From: Catajapyx aquilonaris
Lineage: Eukaryota
Direction of reading: 5' to 3'
Assembly: GCA_000934665.2 (NCBI GenBank)
Contig: KZ538667.1
Span: forward strand, 1 to 54,937
DNA length: 54,937 nucleotides
The notes under the pieces are model-generated. The model searched no databases, was not told the origin of the DNA, and saw nothing but the letters and a program-made list of their open reading frames with translations. The translations under genes were made by a program, and so were the position numbers. How positions within the stretch are numbered: the stretch's first letter is position 1; every line of letters begins with the position of its first letter. Shown one piece after another: positions 9,720-54,937 of the stretch.

Positions 9720-9975
9720 AAGAATTTCCCTGCATGCCCCCCTGCATGCCCCCGTCATGGACCCCATGGCAGGCCCCCCTGGCATGGTCCTGACTATAAC
9801 ACTCATGTACGCCACTTCGGATATAGTAGACTCGGTTATAATAGACTGTAACGCTCAAGTTTGCCTCCATGCCCCCTGTGCAGATCCGAACGTAGCCCTG
9901 CCATGGGCCCCCTGGCGGCCCCCTCTCAGGGTCTGACTGTAACGCTCGAGTTTGCCTGCCCCCCCCNCCCCCCGC
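9720..9975. repeat. C-rich degenerate tandem repeat, probably TE-internal
   Basis: GACTGTAACGCTC(A/G)AGTTTGCCT at 9844 and 9935, a weaker copy GACTATAACACTC at 9792, and repeated CATGCCCCC / CCATGG motifs. Confidence 0.55.
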
Positions 9976-13703: not shown

Positions 13704-14426
13704 GGTTGAAATTTCGCTCCTGTTTTTTTCCGAAATTGGAAAAGTTACAGAGGTGACTTTTACCAGTTTTGAGCTCTGTAGATGTACATTGGTGGAGGTA
13801 TGCAAATGAGGCAAAAATCACAAGAGGGCCCCCCCCCCCCNNNNNNNNNNNGAAACAAAAGATGATCGACACCCCTCTCCCCAGCCCTATTTTGACCATA
13901 GCGTTCTATTCTACCCCTTTCATTTAAAAACGAAAACAGTTACGGATATATACTTTACTGGGTTTTGAAGCTCTACCGATGTCACTTTGTGTGGTATAGA
14001 AATTGACCAAAATTACCGACAGCTGGAGGGTAAATAATAGAATCGGCACCCTCCTTCCCCATCACTAAATCAGAGAGAAGAGGTTGGACAAAATATTTAT
14101 ATGTATAGTAAGTTTGGGTCGAATTTTCGTCCCACTAGTAGTTACTACCAACTAAGCAGTACCATATTTGGCACTGGTACTGCTAAGTCAGCATTAACTA
14201 GCAGTGGGACGAAAATATTTCCTTGTTTGTATTCAAGCCGTGGCGGGGGAGGTGTTGTTTCTTCTTTTTTTTTACCCCGCCCCCCTGTCGGTAATTTTGG
14301 TCTATTTCTATACCACACAAAGCGACATCGATACTTGATAGAGCTTCAAAACCTGCTAAAAGTCACCTTTGTAACTTTTCCAGTTTAAAAAAAAAAAAAA
14401 AAAAAAACAGACGCGAAATTTCAACC
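13704..14426. mobile_element. Foldback-like element with internally repeated inverted arms
   Basis: GGTTGAAATTTCGC..GGAAAAGTTACAGAGGTGACTTTT (13704-13780) and GGTTTTGAAGCTCT..CCAAAATTACCGACAG (13960-14022) are both reverse-complementary to 14285-14426. There is an assembly gap at 13841-13851. Confidence 0.7.
14113..14216. mobile_element. ~105-bp hairpin MITE, copy 1 (nested in the foldback element)
   Basis: ATTTTCGTCCCACT ... AGTGGGACGAAAAT inverted ends, with an inner AGCAGTACCA/TGGTACTGCT stem. Homologous to 30929-31039. Confidence 0.8.
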
Positions 14427-48212: not shown

Positions 48213-48546
48213 CAGTAGAACCCTGATTATTATCCGACTCCTTGGTTTATCTGACCATCCTTCTCCAGCAATAAATATATTTTTCTCATCAAATACTGTA
48301 ATATCCTACGAATTTGTTTTGTATTGCATTCGTTAAATTGTAAATACAGTACAGTAGAGTGTGTATGTAAAAGATAACACTTCACTATTTCTTAGAAAAC
48401 CATGATATTGTGACACATTATTTCATGTTTTCATGTTTCTTTGTTGTGTTTAATTAAAGTTTTCTTTGCTCCTCGGATTATCCGACTTTTTGTGTTCCGG
48501 CCATGCCCCCCAGTCCTGCGGGTGGTGGATAATCGGGGTTCTACTG
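48213..48546. mobile_element. pogo/Tigger-like MITE in the presumed OLA1 intron 1
   Basis: TIR CAGTAGAACCCTGATTAT / ATAATCGGGGTTCTACTG with a TA TSD on both sides. Internal TTATCCGACT repeats. Confidence 0.88.
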
Positions 48547-49685
48547 TATTTATTTCTTATTTTAACAATGAGCATGATGTCATGATTGGACGATCCCTCC
48601 TTTACCCCCCCCCNNNNNNNNTATGACCTGTAATGGTTTGTAAAAGTTTGTCAGAGAGAGTGGTATAGTCAGTGATTTGAATTGCTGGTGCCTCACATGT
48701 ATACGTTATTAAAAATTAAAATGAAAGTTATTCAAATTTTCCATTTGTTCCTGATTATGATTATTTGACATGCCTTACACAGTTCCTAAAGTGCATAATA
48801 TACAACTGCCTGCATAATGGTAAGCAAATCATACTTGAGAGCCACACTATTTCACTCAGTACTCAAGACCAACAATAGAAATGAAAGTTTTATTATCGTG
48901 GAGTTGCATGCCGAACCTCACAATTGACAGGTACTGTATGTAGAGGAGAGGTACATTTATTTGGAATTACCTGAAGTGCTAAGGCAATGCTGCACTCCCT
49001 CCCTTAATTTTCATATTTAAATATGCAGGAACAAACTTATTAGCGATATTTTGCATTGGTGTAACTACAACTGGACATGTTTTTGCATTACCTTACATTC
49101 ATTTCTCCCTTCCCACAGGACATGTCAAGTCAAATTATACCAGGGAGGAGCATCAAGTTCTAATAATTTTGTAATTAGTAGGCTACATGTACCTGTGACA
49201 TACAGTATTTTGTAGTGACCTGCTCATGGCTGCAAGTAATGACTTTTGTGTAGGCTACACATTTGTGTACGAGTAGGCCTGCAGTACAAAGGGTTGAAAA
49301 GTTCTTTTTTCAGTGTCTGCTTTTTGCAGAAAATCATTGCCACTACATTTCTTGTTTATTATCCTGACCTGGCCACTCTCTTTCATTTTACCATGGTACT
49401 GTATTCATGCTATGCAGATCATTAATTATTATGAATTTTTTTGATACAGTCTACCTGAAGGTAAAGTGCTGCAATACATGACCTTGCATTTTTTAAATGG
49501 CATGTTGTGCTTAATGCCTGTGGGGTTGGAACACAGACCTCATGCCAGCATTATTTCACCCATCATCCAATTATGAGCAACTGGTGTCTTGAAAGACTAA
49601 TTGTAGGGTGTGACACTAAGTGATGGCATCTGATAAATTTCAGTGTTTGAATTAAATAAACTTCCTCTGGTCTAGAGAACATGTA

Positions 49686-50467: not shown

Positions 50468-50746
50468 TAATTAGACTTTCCTAGAATGTAATTTTTGTGG
50501 GCCATGTGTGTATCAGGGCACAATTTGGGTTTTATAATGTGCACAGTATAATATCCCAATTATTCTTAGATACCGGTACATCATGATACTTCTGCACATA
50601 ATATTATGCATGCTTGACTTTATTGCCACTTGAGCTGGCAATGCAGTTGAACATCTCTTGTGTCGAATCAGTTATGAGATTGGTAATATTATTGTTACTT
50701 TTAATGAATAATAGAGAATTTTTTGACTGCTCTGTTTCAGGTAATT

Positions 50747-50924
50747 ATGCCTCCCAAGAAGACGGAACCAGAGCGCAAGGCATTAATTGGACGTGTGGGC
50801 ACCAACCTAAAAGTGGGCATTGTTGGTCTGCCTAATGTGGGAAAGTCAACCTTCTTCAATGTACTCACCAAGAGTCAGGTGCCAGCTGAGAACTTTCCCT
50901 TCTGCACCATCGATCCTACTGAGA
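50747..50924 (+). CDS. OLA1: Obg-like ATPase 1 (YchF family), first coding exon, partial. The exon starts at 50741 and ends at 50924 (AT donor) or 50928 (GT donor).
   Basis: [59 protein letters not shown] contains the P-loop GLPNVGKS and the switch-I motif NFPFCTIDP diagnostic of YchF/OLA1. Preceded by the acceptor TGACTGCTCTGTTTCAG. Homology stops after codon 59, and I found no further exon in the window. Confidence 0.96.
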
Positions 50925-51194
50925 ATAAGTACCTTTTTAATTTTTCAAAACACTGTACTCGTAGTTGCTGTAGGATTAATTTTTGGTGCTTTTTAAACTG
51001 GTGTGAGGTGGATGACCTAGCATGCTAATATGCTTGTGCTACAGATGTAGCTACATGGAGTAGGCCATTCAGTCATGCTAATTCAAAATCATATAACTGC
51101 CACATTCTGAAATTTACAAGGGAATTAAGAAATATAATGACAACGGCATTCATTTTGTATATATTTTATACGAGGTACCCACCTATCATCTTAA

Positions 51195-51630
51195 CCCTTT
51201 AACAGCGGTTTTTTTGGCCATTTTTTCCTTTTCTTGATTTGTAGTAGGAGTGATATTAATGAAAAACAATATACTCCAATATTTATAATTTTAACTAGTG
51301 CAGGTCCTTTTGAATGTAAAATGCAGAAATATTCATCTGCAGGGTGTTCCAGATTTTTTTTGAAGTGCAATTAACTTTAAATGTAATTAAACGCATTTAA
51401 AATTTTAAAGTCACTATAAAATTGTTACTGTGGTTACTAAATTATACTAAAACACTGTACTATGAGAAATTCCTAAGAGTCCAGACTTACGGGACATCTT
51501 ATTCTAACGTAGCGGGAGGGGGTATGTTTAGCTCACACTGGGAGTCGGAAAAACTTATTAGCATATGCCATGGTAGTTGAGCCCCCTTCCACGAGGTGGT
51601 AAAAGCAGTTTGAGCCCCAAACTGTGCCAT
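51195..51630 (-). mobile_element. piggyBac-like element related to 3908-4416 (one end intact)
   Basis: TTAA-CCCTTT terminus. 51235-51500 is the reverse complement of 4105-4370 (e.g. TATGAGAAATTCCTAAGAGTCCAGACTTA), with weaker similarity to about 51630. Confidence 0.8.
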
Positions 51631-51974
51631 TTCTGTCTAAACTCGAGCATGCCCAGTTAAAAAAATCATATGTACATAGGCTCAAAATCAGAGCTCATGC
51701 ATTGAATAGTGCAATAATATAACTTATGGTGGATTCAGGTAACTACCAATTTTAAAAATGCAAGCCACAAAGTATAGACCATTGTAATTGATGTCCAGTT
51801 ACCATCATTATGGGTCTGTAGCTTGTACTCAATTATAATTTTTGCACCTGATTTTTATCCCTCTCTATGATAAGATCTACCATACTTTTCCTATTTAAAA
51901 AATTTTAAAAATTATAACAGGCAGCAATACACTCCTTGTGAACCAAGGTTTTTTTCATCACCAGGAGTAAATCT

Positions 51975-52283
51975 TATTTTTATTTTTATTTACTGTATTT
52001 TATTTTACCCAGTGATAGGGCAAGCCCTTATAGGGGGTGGCATACCACCGTCAATTTTCTTTGATTTTTCTGACTCTTACTTAACGCATGGGTGGGGCCA
52101 AGGATAGGGACAGAAGGAAGCAGCTGTGGCCTATTTTTACAGAAGCGAGCTGGAATTATCTTGGGGGGACCATGGGAAACCACAGAAAACCACGGTCAGG
52201 GTCGCCGGCCCCGGTATTCGAACCCAAGACCTCCCGATTAGCAGGCGGACTCCACATCCACTACACCAACCTGCGCCGGTTCA
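51975..52283 (-). mobile_element. tRNA-derived SINE (family A head and body), full length
   Basis: Perfect 19-bp TSD CATCACCAGGAGTAAATCT (51956-51974, 52284-52302). Minus-strand A-box TGGTGTAGTGG, B-box GGTTCGAATAC and an A-rich tail. The body matches 29599-29785. Confidence 0.93.
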
Positions 52284-52357
52284 CATCACCAGGAGTAAAT
52301 CTATGATCTTCAAAATCTCAATAATGAGTCATACTGAATGATGATGATAATGGGCAT

Positions 52358-52717
52358 TATTTTTATATTTTTAAATTTTTTATTTTAGATATTTTACCCC
52401 GTGATAGGCCTACACAGGCCTTTTTGGGGGGTGGTACACCACTATCAATTTTCTTGTACTTTTTTCTTCAATCTCTGGTGCAAGGAAACAGGACAATGGG
52501 AAAGGATAAGGATTTTTTGGGGGAGGGGACACTGGTGCAAGTGCAATGTCTCAAAGTTGGGCCATGTGCAATCCCCCAGGAGATTAGGTTGCCAGACACC
52601 TCCAAAGGTGCAGGTCAGAAAGGTGCAGGTGAAAGGGAACTCCCCGGCAGGGATCGAAGCTGGAACCTTTCACTCAGCAAGCCGAGATGTTACCATCTCG
52701 GCCACCACACCTTCCCC
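52358..52717 (-). mobile_element. tRNA-derived SINE (family B head and body) sharing its 3' tail with the adjacent SINE
   Basis: Minus-strand A-box TGGCCGAGATGG and B-box GCTTCGATCCC. TSD ATAATGGGCAT / ATAATGAGCAT (52347-52357, 52718-52728). The tail at 52392-52456 resembles 52002-52062. Confidence 0.82.
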
Positions 52718-53380
52718 ATAATGAGCATAATAGGAATTGCAATACTGTAATGGGAGAACTGATGGTTCATTAACCTGCAAGGTGCCAAATTAATAGAACC
52801 ACAGTGTATACTGTATATTTTTGTAGTACCATGATCAAGGGAATCCACATGATAACTTTTTTGTGCCTTTCACTGGTTAGCATCATGTGCTAACCACCCA
52901 GATGAATAATAATAAATAAATAAAAAGAACTAGAAGTGCCAACTGTGCTGCATATGTACTCCTTCATGGAACACTGCATGAAGTAATGACTCTGTTAGTG
53001 TAAATGTGGCACACAGTCACTAAACTTGTACATACACAGTAGATTTGCAAGTTCTCGTTGAATTGAGTATGTCCAGTCAGTTATTTCAACTTTGCATTTG
53101 GTAAGGCACATGTTCAGGATGAAGTGGGAGGGCCATTTCAAACTTATCTAAAAGACACCCAACCTCATCATCACGGTTCATTACATTTAACTTTGTTATA
53201 TATTTACAATGAATTGCCTGTAATTAAGTACTAGTTACTTTTGATAAGTTATTTGTAGCAGCACACCTCATCAGTGTAGCAGTGTATAATAGGAGTGTAG
53301 TACCATAAATAGCGTATAGTGGCGGTAACAGGAGAAAGACCAGATCATCCTCATTCAGCAGTTACAATTACACTGCAAGC

Positions 53381-53710
53381 TTATCATCATCATCATCATA
53401 ATCATCATCATACATTTACGGCTTTTCCCAAAATATTGGGGTGCCAGTGGATAATGAGGAGGTCCAGACTGCTACCTTGAAAATGGGTAGTGGTCATTTA
53501 TTTGGGGATGTGAATGGACAATGTATGCGAATGAGTTACACCAATAGTCGACCAAAGTTGGTTCTGAATAAACACCATATAAGCTTACTTATTGCAACGC
53601 GATCTGTGATTCAACACTGCTGCCGCCTGATGCCACGTATTTTAAAATCCCTCCTCACCTTGTGCTACAGTTGCTGGGAACATCATTAGTGCCCATCTTG
53701 CGCCTGGATA
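53381..53710 (-). mobile_element. 3' remnant of an RTE-like non-LTR retrotransposon with a (GAT)n tail
   Basis: The minus-strand translation L*HKVRRDFKIRGIRRQQC*ITDRVAISKLI resembles the RTE ORF C-terminus (W.D.V..D....G......DR..WR.L). It is followed by a 3' UTR and an (ATG)n tail at 53383-53412. Confidence 0.5.
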
Positions 53711-54937
53711 CTATACTTTCCAAATAGAGTGGTTCTTTGGTATATCTCGTGATATCCCTCTCCAGCCTCATTTAGTCACGCACAATATTGGAAATAAGGA
53801 ATGCTGACCATAACATTTGGACTATAATATCACCACAGGCCCCTTCCGACTAGACAAATTTTTGTCTGTTTTAAACCGTTTTTGCTATATCTCATGTAAA
53901 CCTGTATATTACCAAGGCGAGTCAATATTTCTGAATTTGGAACCGATAATATCTCACGGCTGACCTTCTGCATGTAATGATATGTCGTCTAATTGAAGGG
54001 GCCCGGCGTTCAATACCCCCGAACGCGGCCATGTTACGCTTGAGAAGGTCGTCTGTTACAGGAGTGTAGTTGTGAAACGTGTAGCAAATTAAAGCTGGCT
54101 GGATATTTGATTGTTGCTTAATATTTCTTGTTAGGTTTTAGATTTTTTCTCATGCAGAGAATGAGTCAGCATTTAGTGATACTCTTTGTGAGCCAAATGT
54201 TACGTGGGTTAGTAGGTTACCTACTCAACCTGCAAAAGAAATATACGACATTTGAGTACTTCATCACAAGGACATTTCTTTGAAATGAAGAGTAACTGTT
54301 TGTACTCACAAGCTGTAAGTTTACCCCATGGCTTCATAAAGTTCGACCATTCACATGTGGTAAAGAGTTAGTGATAATTACACAAAATTAGTGCCGAGCA
54401 CTTCTGGACGAATCGTGACGTAATGACGTGATAGTGCGATTAATCAGGACTGCCTTGCAGGGGAATAATTATTATAAGCTTCCTATATACTGTAGGACAG
54501 GTGTTAGGTTGTTGAGTAAAGTAGAAAATCGCAGTGTCAACATCATCTGATTAATATCACTCCACAGACGTACTCACTGTACTGGCCGCAGCTGTCGCAA
54601 GCTGATTGACAATCGAATAAGGATCTCACTTCGACACGTCCCGAAGCGCAAACTCTGTTAATAATATTGCACACAATGTATTACCACCAACTGCGAATGA
54701 CCTCAGCTTCGAAACAAAGAATCAGATACTCCACGAAGTCACGATTTACTGGCATATGTCAATAATTAATAATACGTGACATGTGACCGCAATCAGTTGC
54801 GTACTTGCGTAGATGCTGGGAGAATGGGAAGTTGGCAAGCACTCTTCAACTTTTTATAGCAAAATTGAATCAAGATAATTTGCTTGATTTTTAGAATCAA
54901 ACTTTTCAGTACATGGCTGTGTCCATTTTAATATTGA

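Follow-up and report, generated by a model that had tools for sequence, protein, structure and literature searches.

A candidate major-spliceosome AT-AC intron after the first coding exon of OLA1 in Catajapyx aquilonaris and its arthropod relatives

The first coding exon of OLA1

The window analysed here is the whole stretch of 54,937 nucleotides of Catajapyx aquilonaris contig KZ538667.1, read on the forward strand, and toward its right end lies the first coding exon of the gene for Obg-like ATPase 1 (OLA1). This exon consists of a 7-nt 5' leader, an ATG at 50747-50749, 59 codons that run to a Glu (GAG, 50921-50923) and a single A at 50924. A tttcag acceptor can be read from the sequence at 50734-50739, immediately 5' of 50740, where we place the predicted 5' boundary. 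The frame from the ATG encodes 59 residues starting with MPPKK, and it would go on with N-K-Y if translation continued past the exon. The features discussed below are as follows.

50740..50924, + strand: OLA1 first coding exon in the AT-AC register, placed by exon homology, with a predicted 5' boundary
50925..50932, + strand: candidate AT 5' splice site, A|ATAAGTAC, U2-type at +2 to +7, from the sequence and the U1 duplex
50929..50934, + strand: nested canonical GT, AA|GTACCT, 4 nt inside the AT donor, from the sequence
50925..54937, + strand: 5' part of OLA1 intron 1, at least 4013 nt, running past the window edge, with no downstream VPVPD exon found in the window

The identity of the exon is clear from its peptide, which is 81-89% identical to arthropod OLA1 proteins and fragments among the best matches (E ~1e-25 to 1e-28). 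It carries the OLA1/YchF signature of an N-terminal G domain with the P-loop GxPNVGKS, followed by the ...FPFCTIxP segment. Full-length relatives have the precomputed Pfam assignments PF01926, PF02421 and PF06071; the window itself holds exon 1 only. A tblastn search with nine OLA1 proteins identified a single copy of this exon in the window, and neither that search nor a six-frame scan for VPVPD-type motifs found exon 2 there. One weak match to OLA1 at 48484-48516 was rejected as a spurious, chance similarity. Intron 1 is longer than 4 kb in this species and continues beyond the window.

Several interspersed repeats occur within the intron. Positions 51191-51635 match 4420-3969 in inverted orientation (76% over 459 nt), 52101-52280 match 29780-29599 (86% over 182 nt), and 51974-52069 forms a local direct repeat pair with 52357-52463 (73%). 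The window also contains four short runs of N, 21 N in total, at 9967, 13841-13851, 48614-48621 and 50379; the last is a single N that lies 360 nt upstream of OLA1 exon 1, behind a G run.

A candidate AT donor with a canonical GT nested inside it

Read directly, positions 50915-50936 of the window are CCT ACT GAG AAT AAG TAC CTT T. Homology to OLA1 stops at ...GAG A and the intron opens with AT, so that the boundary falls at 50924/50925 and, in the AT-AC register, the A at 50924 would be the first base of a split AGY Ser codon. The hexamer ATAAGT occupies 50925-50930 and contains the sole nearby GT, at 50929-50930; no other GT can be read between 50878 and 50929. Splicing from this GT would extend the exon to 50740-50928. 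Only if an AGY Ser codon is divided in phase 1 can the family sequence E-S-R be reached.

By the criterion of Sheth et al. (2006), the donor ATAAGTA is GTAAGTA with G1 replaced by A, and it otherwise matches the U2-type consensus. We examined its pairing with the 5' end of U1 across 50910-50945. The best duplex pairs 50926-50931 through six contiguous base pairs (-3.9 kcal/mol), which corresponds to +2 to +7 in the AT register; in the GT register at 50929 the longest U1-paired run is three. U12-type donors, by the main text of an insect survey, follow (A/G)TATCCTT and are accompanied by the branch site TCCTTAACT (PMC3291851). By our own reading, the window donor ATAAGTAC agrees with that donor consensus at three of eight positions, and it lacks the conserved ATATCCTT of U12-type AT-AC introns. 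The donor DNA that we compared comprises two sequences, the window and a metagenome contig from a relative (L001), which reads GAA A|ATAAGTAT.

The initial annotation, made from the letters of this DNA, had proposed that the OLA1 exon ends at ...ACT GAG A before ATAAGT, that this hexamer is an ideal U2 donor in which G+1 has become A, that the only nearby GT gives the poor donor AA|GTACCT, and that the site resembles U2 rather than U12 donors. The exon end and the hexamer are in the sequence as described, the six contiguous U1 pairs and the run of only three at the GT agree with the ranking of the two sites, and the U1 register together with the low U12 agreement confirms the U2-like character of the donor.

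OLA1 proteins from spliced sequences and from gene models

Use of the AT donor gives E-S-R at the exon junction, and a junction displaced by 4 nt to the nested GT gives E-N-K. Many full-length insect OLA1 proteins do read ...DPNE-N-K-VPVPD, and these were the source of our initial reading, in which the GT at 50929 was adopted as a phase-2 donor with E-N-K as a natural variant; that reading was given up in view of same-species pairs of N-K and S-R sequences, described below.

We sorted OLA1 proteins by hand into two classes, based on contig size and source. The first, which we call cDNA-like, holds full-length OLA1 proteins of at least 380 aa on Logan, JGI or ENA contigs shorter than 10 kb. Because many read-through fragments occur among them, the entries from these sources are contiguous ORFs, and a full-length OLA1 on a contig below 10 kb is therefore derived from spliced RNA. 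The second class holds scaffold gene models of 380-430 aa that continue with a VPVPD-like sequence. Proteins outside the size range and those that do not continue with VPVPD were omitted, and five OLA1 entries present only in UniRef were tallied separately (four ESR, one ENR).

cDNA-like OLA1 (n = 50): ESR 38, ENR 8, EAR 4, ENK 0
Scaffold gene models of OLA1 (n = 68): ESR 40, ENR 7, EAR 0, ENK 21

ENK is thus absent from the 50 cDNA-like sequences and present in 21 of the 68 scaffold models (Fisher p = 2.7e-6, a value that overstates independence since the sequences are related). Both protein queries end in N-K, and any bias in the sampling would favor ENK matches.

Comparisons within species isolate the two residues. 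In Bactrocera neohumeralis, isoforms X2 and X1 are identical at 395 of 397 positions and differ solely by N61S and K62R. The X1/X2 pairs of Condylostylus longicornis and of Cylas formicarius likewise differ only by N61S and K62R, as does the Musca domestica genome model from the UniRef-only entry T1PD99 of the same species, which we take to be transcript-derived. RefSeq lists both the N-K and the S-R form as isoforms X1/X2 in several species, and the GT-AG pair may be used to some extent.

Drosophila provides a further comparison. The reviewed D. melanogaster protein OLA1_DROME (Q8SWU7, CG1354, NP_001259389) reads ...CTIKPNESRVPVPD, that is, KPNESRVPVPD, and its sequence is also found on 13 Logan contigs, none longer than 1684 nt. 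Two genomic ORFs (P0061 and P0062) match its first 60 residues at 60 of 60 positions and then continue ...CTIKPNENKYS. With a genome that encodes AAY AAR TAY after the Glu, the reviewed E-S-R protein therefore cannot arise from a GT donor. Judging from that protein, the fly OLA1 intron is evidently annotated correctly, and we infer from it that CG1354 carries an AT-AC annotation in the fly.

The acceptor side, read through proteins

If the intron ends in AC and completes a split Ser codon, the DNA around the acceptor should read NNA C|GY AGR GTN and, when left unspliced, should expose an x-R-R-V frame upstream of exon 2. We set this prediction beforehand. Seven proteins leave this frame readable, and every one of them has x-R-R-VPVPD, with the acceptor judged by back-translation rather than from DNA. 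The x residues are A, T, A, P, A, L and A, each of which has a codon able to end in A. Five of the seven proteins are gene models (Cotesia typhae, Frankliniella fusca, Amphibalanus amphitrite, Danaus chrysippus and Apis florea), and the other two, P0037 and P0078, are raw contiguous genomic ORFs that start in exon 1 and stay open across the entire intron as far as exon 2. A pyrimidine tract with a plain AG acceptor would give no Arg, so the Arg before the AG in seven of seven argues against such a 3' end.

The barnacle Amphibalanus allows the codon to be fixed within one species. Compared with the same-species RefSeq protein P0090, the first R of model P0063 aligns with S; the two are otherwise identical in their aligned parts to about residue 379 of P0063, apart from a 19-residue insert, after which their C-termini differ. 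Because A plus GY makes Ser, this first R must be CGY. The introns implied by back-translation measure 99 nt in P0037 and 90 nt in P0078, and 78 nt in the Cotesia gene model. By homology with these relatives, the intron of Catajapyx aquilonaris would also end in AC.

Taken together, these comparisons of the orthologous junction in other arthropods favor the AT-AC reading in the relatives, and they bear on the remaining proposals of the initial annotation. It had stated that the family continues DPNE-S-R-VPVPD, as most relatives indeed do, and that this fits an AGY Ser codon divided in phase 1, which the seven upstream frames and the barnacle comparison uphold for relatives. Its expectation that GT-AG predictors would shift the junction by 4 nt and write E-N-K is matched by 21 of 68 scaffold models. 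For its central proposal, an AT...AC intron that gives E-S-R, support comes from relatives through the same-species pairs, the cDNA-like counts and Drosophila.

Conservation of the donor among arthropods

Proteins that read on past N-K without entering VPVPD report on the first bases of the intron. The proteins analysed include 164 such continuations, made up of read-through ORFs and a few fused models; N-K is followed by Y in 149 of them, by C in 6, by S in 4, by L in 2, and by E, F or N in one each. N-K-Y reads back as AAY AAR TAY, so that T-A-Y at +6 to +8 of the AT register is nearly constant. Conservation of T at +6 and A at +7, with Y in 149 of 164, is what extended pairing to U1 would lead one to expect. 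Beyond +8 the encoded residues vary freely.

ENK models or ENKY read-throughs were found in Hemiptera, Thysanoptera, Psocodea, Hymenoptera, Coleoptera, Lepidoptera, Trichoptera, brachyceran Diptera, Odonata, Blattodea and Collembola. Beyond insects and springtails they occur in the barnacle Amphibalanus and the oribatid mite Medioppia, and also in one spider record that is flagged as possible contamination. This spread over insects, springtails, barnacles and mites suggests that the AT type of donor may have originated in early arthropods.

DNA-level searches added one site. A metagenome scan returned 80 loci, among which L001, a contig that stops short of exon 2, is the one arthropod-like genomic donor; the others are transcripts from other eukaryotes or bacterial YchF. 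Pattern scans for the donor had no matches in genome contigs or viral contigs, and a scan for the acceptor pattern had none in genome contigs. A third protein search added many donor read-throughs and no further ORF that crosses the whole intron.

A major-spliceosome AT-AC intron is the best explanation

It is very probable that the intron behind the first coding exon of OLA1 starts with AT and otherwise looks ordinary. In the reading that we prefer, with a probability of about 0.78, OLA1 intron 1 begins with the AT at 50925, ends in AC by homology with the relatives, carries U2-type signals and yields an mRNA for E-S-R-VPVPD. The U1 snRNA would bind UAAGUA(Y) at +2 to +7, and cleavage would fall before the A at +1. 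A 3' end of YAC would then supply C-1, which would pair with A+1 where introns usually make a G-G contact and so enable the second step. For AT-AC II introns, the replacement of the terminal G/G by A+1/C-1 in the second catalytic step is treated as established in the main text of Sheth et al. (PMC1557818). The joint in the mRNA would read ...GAG A + GY AGR GTN..., translated as E-S-R-VPVPD. The inner GT, with its weak match to U1, and the AG of the Arg codon AGR would lie 4 nt inside the two ends and would keep the frame. Gene predictors would write E-N-K because this nested GT-AG pair preserves the frame and an AT-AC pair is not accepted.

The alternative that survives best, and one that we still regard as unlikely, is an AT-AC intron excised by the minor, U12-dependent spliceosome. 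Most AT-AC introns are indeed U12-type, and D. melanogaster has six U12-type against three U2-type AT-AC introns by the count in the main text of Sheth et al. (PMC1557818). If the intron were of this kind, its donor should resemble (A/G)TATCCTT beyond the three of eight positions noted above, and conservation might extend past +8, where the read-throughs diverge. The 3' ends argue the same way, as six of the seven orthologue tails leave no way to encode a U12 branch site (TCCTTAAC or CCTTRAY) within their final 43 nt. The exception is P0078, whose tail could specify TCCTTAAC at 7 nt from the 3' end. All seven tails could accommodate a U2-like CTRAY at 20-38 nt upstream, a weak test given the degeneracy of the codons. 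Finally, the main text of the insect U12 survey contains neither 'Obg' nor 'GTP-binding' (PMC3291851). At the donor, OLA1 intron 1 has the sequence features by which Sheth et al. define AT-AC II introns, in so far as the main text describes them (PMC1557818). Since the site pairs with U1 in the AT register and departs from the U12 consensus, we take this to be a pan-arthropod AT-AC intron of the major-spliceosome type; its dependence on U1 and U2 is predicted from these features of the sequence.

It is also improbable, and a little more so, that the GT at 50929 is the main donor, joined to an AG acceptor, with E-N-K-VPVPD as a conservative variant of E-S-R. Such an intron would have canonical dinucleotides, and it would account for ENK in 21 of 68 scaffold models, RefSeq models among them, and for the RefSeq X1/X2 pairs if these mirror real reads. 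Asparagine is evidently tolerated at this position, given the genuine E-N-R mRNAs (8 of the 50 cDNA-like sequences), and E-S-R-Y read-throughs of Anopheles (P0073, P0100) point to a GT intron at this very phase-2 position in some Diptera. However, not one of the 50 cDNA-like sequences has ENK, AA|GTACCT pairs poorly with U1, and a GT-AG intron gives no reason for a conserved R (CGY) codon before the AG in seven of seven relatives. The Drosophila, Musca and barnacle comparisons all point to ESR as the real product.

A much more remote idea is that the intron is spliced as GT-AG and that A-to-I editing then converts N-K to S-R (AAU to AIU and AAG to AIG). Asn to Ser and Lys to Arg are exactly the changes that such editing can produce, and A-to-I editing sites adjoining 5' splice sites are known. 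Nevertheless, the idea requires nearly complete editing at two sites of a housekeeping gene, in every tissue and throughout the arthropods, given that none of the 50 cDNA-like sequences is unedited, and it leaves the conserved CGY codon before the AG unexplained. Furthermore, the locus L002, which we know from transcript-like sequence alone, encodes this Ser as AGC, which cannot be obtained from AAT.

Least credible of all is an assembly error at 50925, a caveat raised by the initial annotation itself, with a perfect donor A|GTAAGT in reality, as N and never S precedes K in 164 of 164 read-through continuations, the L001 donor DNA has the same A, one sequencing run (possibly the source of the assembly itself) contains 17 of 17 sampled exon words, and a phase-1 GT would need a phase-1 AG acceptor where relatives show C|GY.

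Possible shifts of the intron boundary in Diptera and elsewhere

The E-N-R form is real in mRNAs, where it accounts for 8 of the 50 cDNA-like sequences, and among the matches with a species name it is confined to Diptera: sand flies, Anopheles nili, Diamesa, Contarinia and Megaselia. Fragments from Anopheles epiroticus and A. maculatus read E-S-R-Y, with a donor GT where the inner pair begins, at phase 2. The forms found in lower Diptera fit a canonical GT intron placed 4 nt downstream of the AT-AC position. We hypothesize that a single A-to-G change, from AAT AA|GT to AAT AG|GT, would redirect splicing to the inner sites and so produce E-N-R. If true, an intron would here be documented to have moved stepwise over 4 nt while its terminal dinucleotides changed as well. 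Across lineages, the boundary of this intron seems to differ by 1-4 nt.

The nested GT...AG pair might also be maintained for its own sake. We suggest, tentatively and with more doubt than confidence, that it is a conserved second lane rather than an accident, serving either a minor or regulated isoform or an escape route from the AT-AC 'trap'. An isoform made with the inner pair could exchange S-R for N-K just past the ...FCTIDP segment of the G domain.

Other records show further variety at this junction. Four Anopheles entries (P0073, P0100, P0152 and P0157) and other Diptera include E-S-R-Y read-throughs and E-N-R proteins, with N or S varying within Anopheles. Two ENA contigs carry contiguous ORFs that cross a short intron at this junction: P0375 reads E-S-QMIF...IL-G-R-VPVPD, compatible with a GT...AG intron at the same phase-1 position, and P0412 is compatible with a phase-0 GT...CAG intron. 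In six further entries (P0211, P0214, P0222, P0226, P0241 and P0242), exons 1 and 2 are joined, with ESR or ENR, and the frame then runs past ...HKPA into R and a stop. These ORFs could represent either partly spliced RNAs that keep intron 2 or genomes that do not have intron 1.

Relation to known AT-AC introns

AT-AC II introns number 15 in human, 6 in mouse and 3 in fly, with TAF2 among the genes named, and they are kept in orthologues, according to the main text of Sheth et al. (PMC1557818). A 'trapped' state of such introns is discussed in the main text of Lin et al. 2010 (PMC2831892). OLA1 intron 1 shares the AT start, the U2-type donor, G+5, A+4 and T+6 with the AT-AC II introns of human SCN4A and SCN5A and of TAF2 in human and D. 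melanogaster. It differs from these examples in lying in another gene and in having a frame-preserving GT-AG pair nested 4 nt inside both ends. In addition, dependence on the major spliceosome was shown by experiment for SCN4A and SCN5A, whereas OLA1 intron 1 is classed by features of its sequence.

The closest counterpart is the junction in D. melanogaster CG1354, which lies at the same protein position (E-S-R-VPVPD) and has the same genomic read-on (E-N-K-Y) on Drosophila-type contigs. This is almost certainly the same intron as in Catajapyx aquilonaris, which differs in that Thr replaces Asn ahead of the Glu and in that its intron exceeds 4 kb. With U12-type AT-AC introns OLA1 intron 1 has the terminal dinucleotides in common, but its donor does not have the ATATCC core and most of its orthologue tails have no place for the TCCTTAAC branch site. 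The twintrons of prospero and ZRSR2 in insects likewise have two intron definitions at one position, as described in the main text of PMC3291851. Those combine a U12-type with a U2-type intron and change many residues, whereas both OLA1 pairs look U2-type, are offset by 4 nt at both ends and would swap two residues.

A literature search found no paper that links OLA1 or CG1354 with AT-AC introns, and for CG1354 and splicing the titles and abstracts returned nothing relevant. OLA1, CG1354 and GTPBP9 are not named in the main texts of PMC1557818 and PMC2831892; the supplements of the former may list the fly AT-AC II introns. The passage of PMC7072748 that we consulted deals with GA-AG sites. The class of AT-AC II introns is therefore known, and we found no paper that describes the OLA1 case.

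Consequences for annotation and splicing

On the AT-AC reading, about a third of the sampled arthropod scaffold gene models (21 of 68) would have two residues wrong in a conserved housekeeping GTPase/ATPase. Predictors refuse an AT-AC junction, and we attribute to this both the wrong residues and the skipped or fused exons seen in ENN forms and in fusions with AK9. U2-type AT-AC introns are rare, with only three counted in the fly in the main text of Sheth et al. (PMC1557818), and the OLA1 intron would offer a natural substrate for the study of spliceosome choice, in which an AT site that pairs strongly with U1 lies 4 nt from a weak GT. Together with the E-N-R and E-S-R forms of Diptera, the nested in-frame GT-AG pair would also provide a testable path of intron-boundary change.

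In four insect models, from Danaus chrysippus, Acromyrmex, Apis florea and Camponotus (P0031, P0048, P0060 and P0081), OLA1 exon 1 is fused to an adenylate-kinase-9-like protein, and two of the four return to OLA1 exon 2 at their end. On this evidence, OLA1 intron 1 of those insects seems to contain an AK9 gene, merged into the model as the AT-AC junction went unrecognized. Finally, the 398-aa model P0178 of Macrosiphum euphorbiae reads E-N-N-R-VPVPD, which fits neither of the reconstructed splice pairs; a prediction program that does not insist on canonical sites may be its source.
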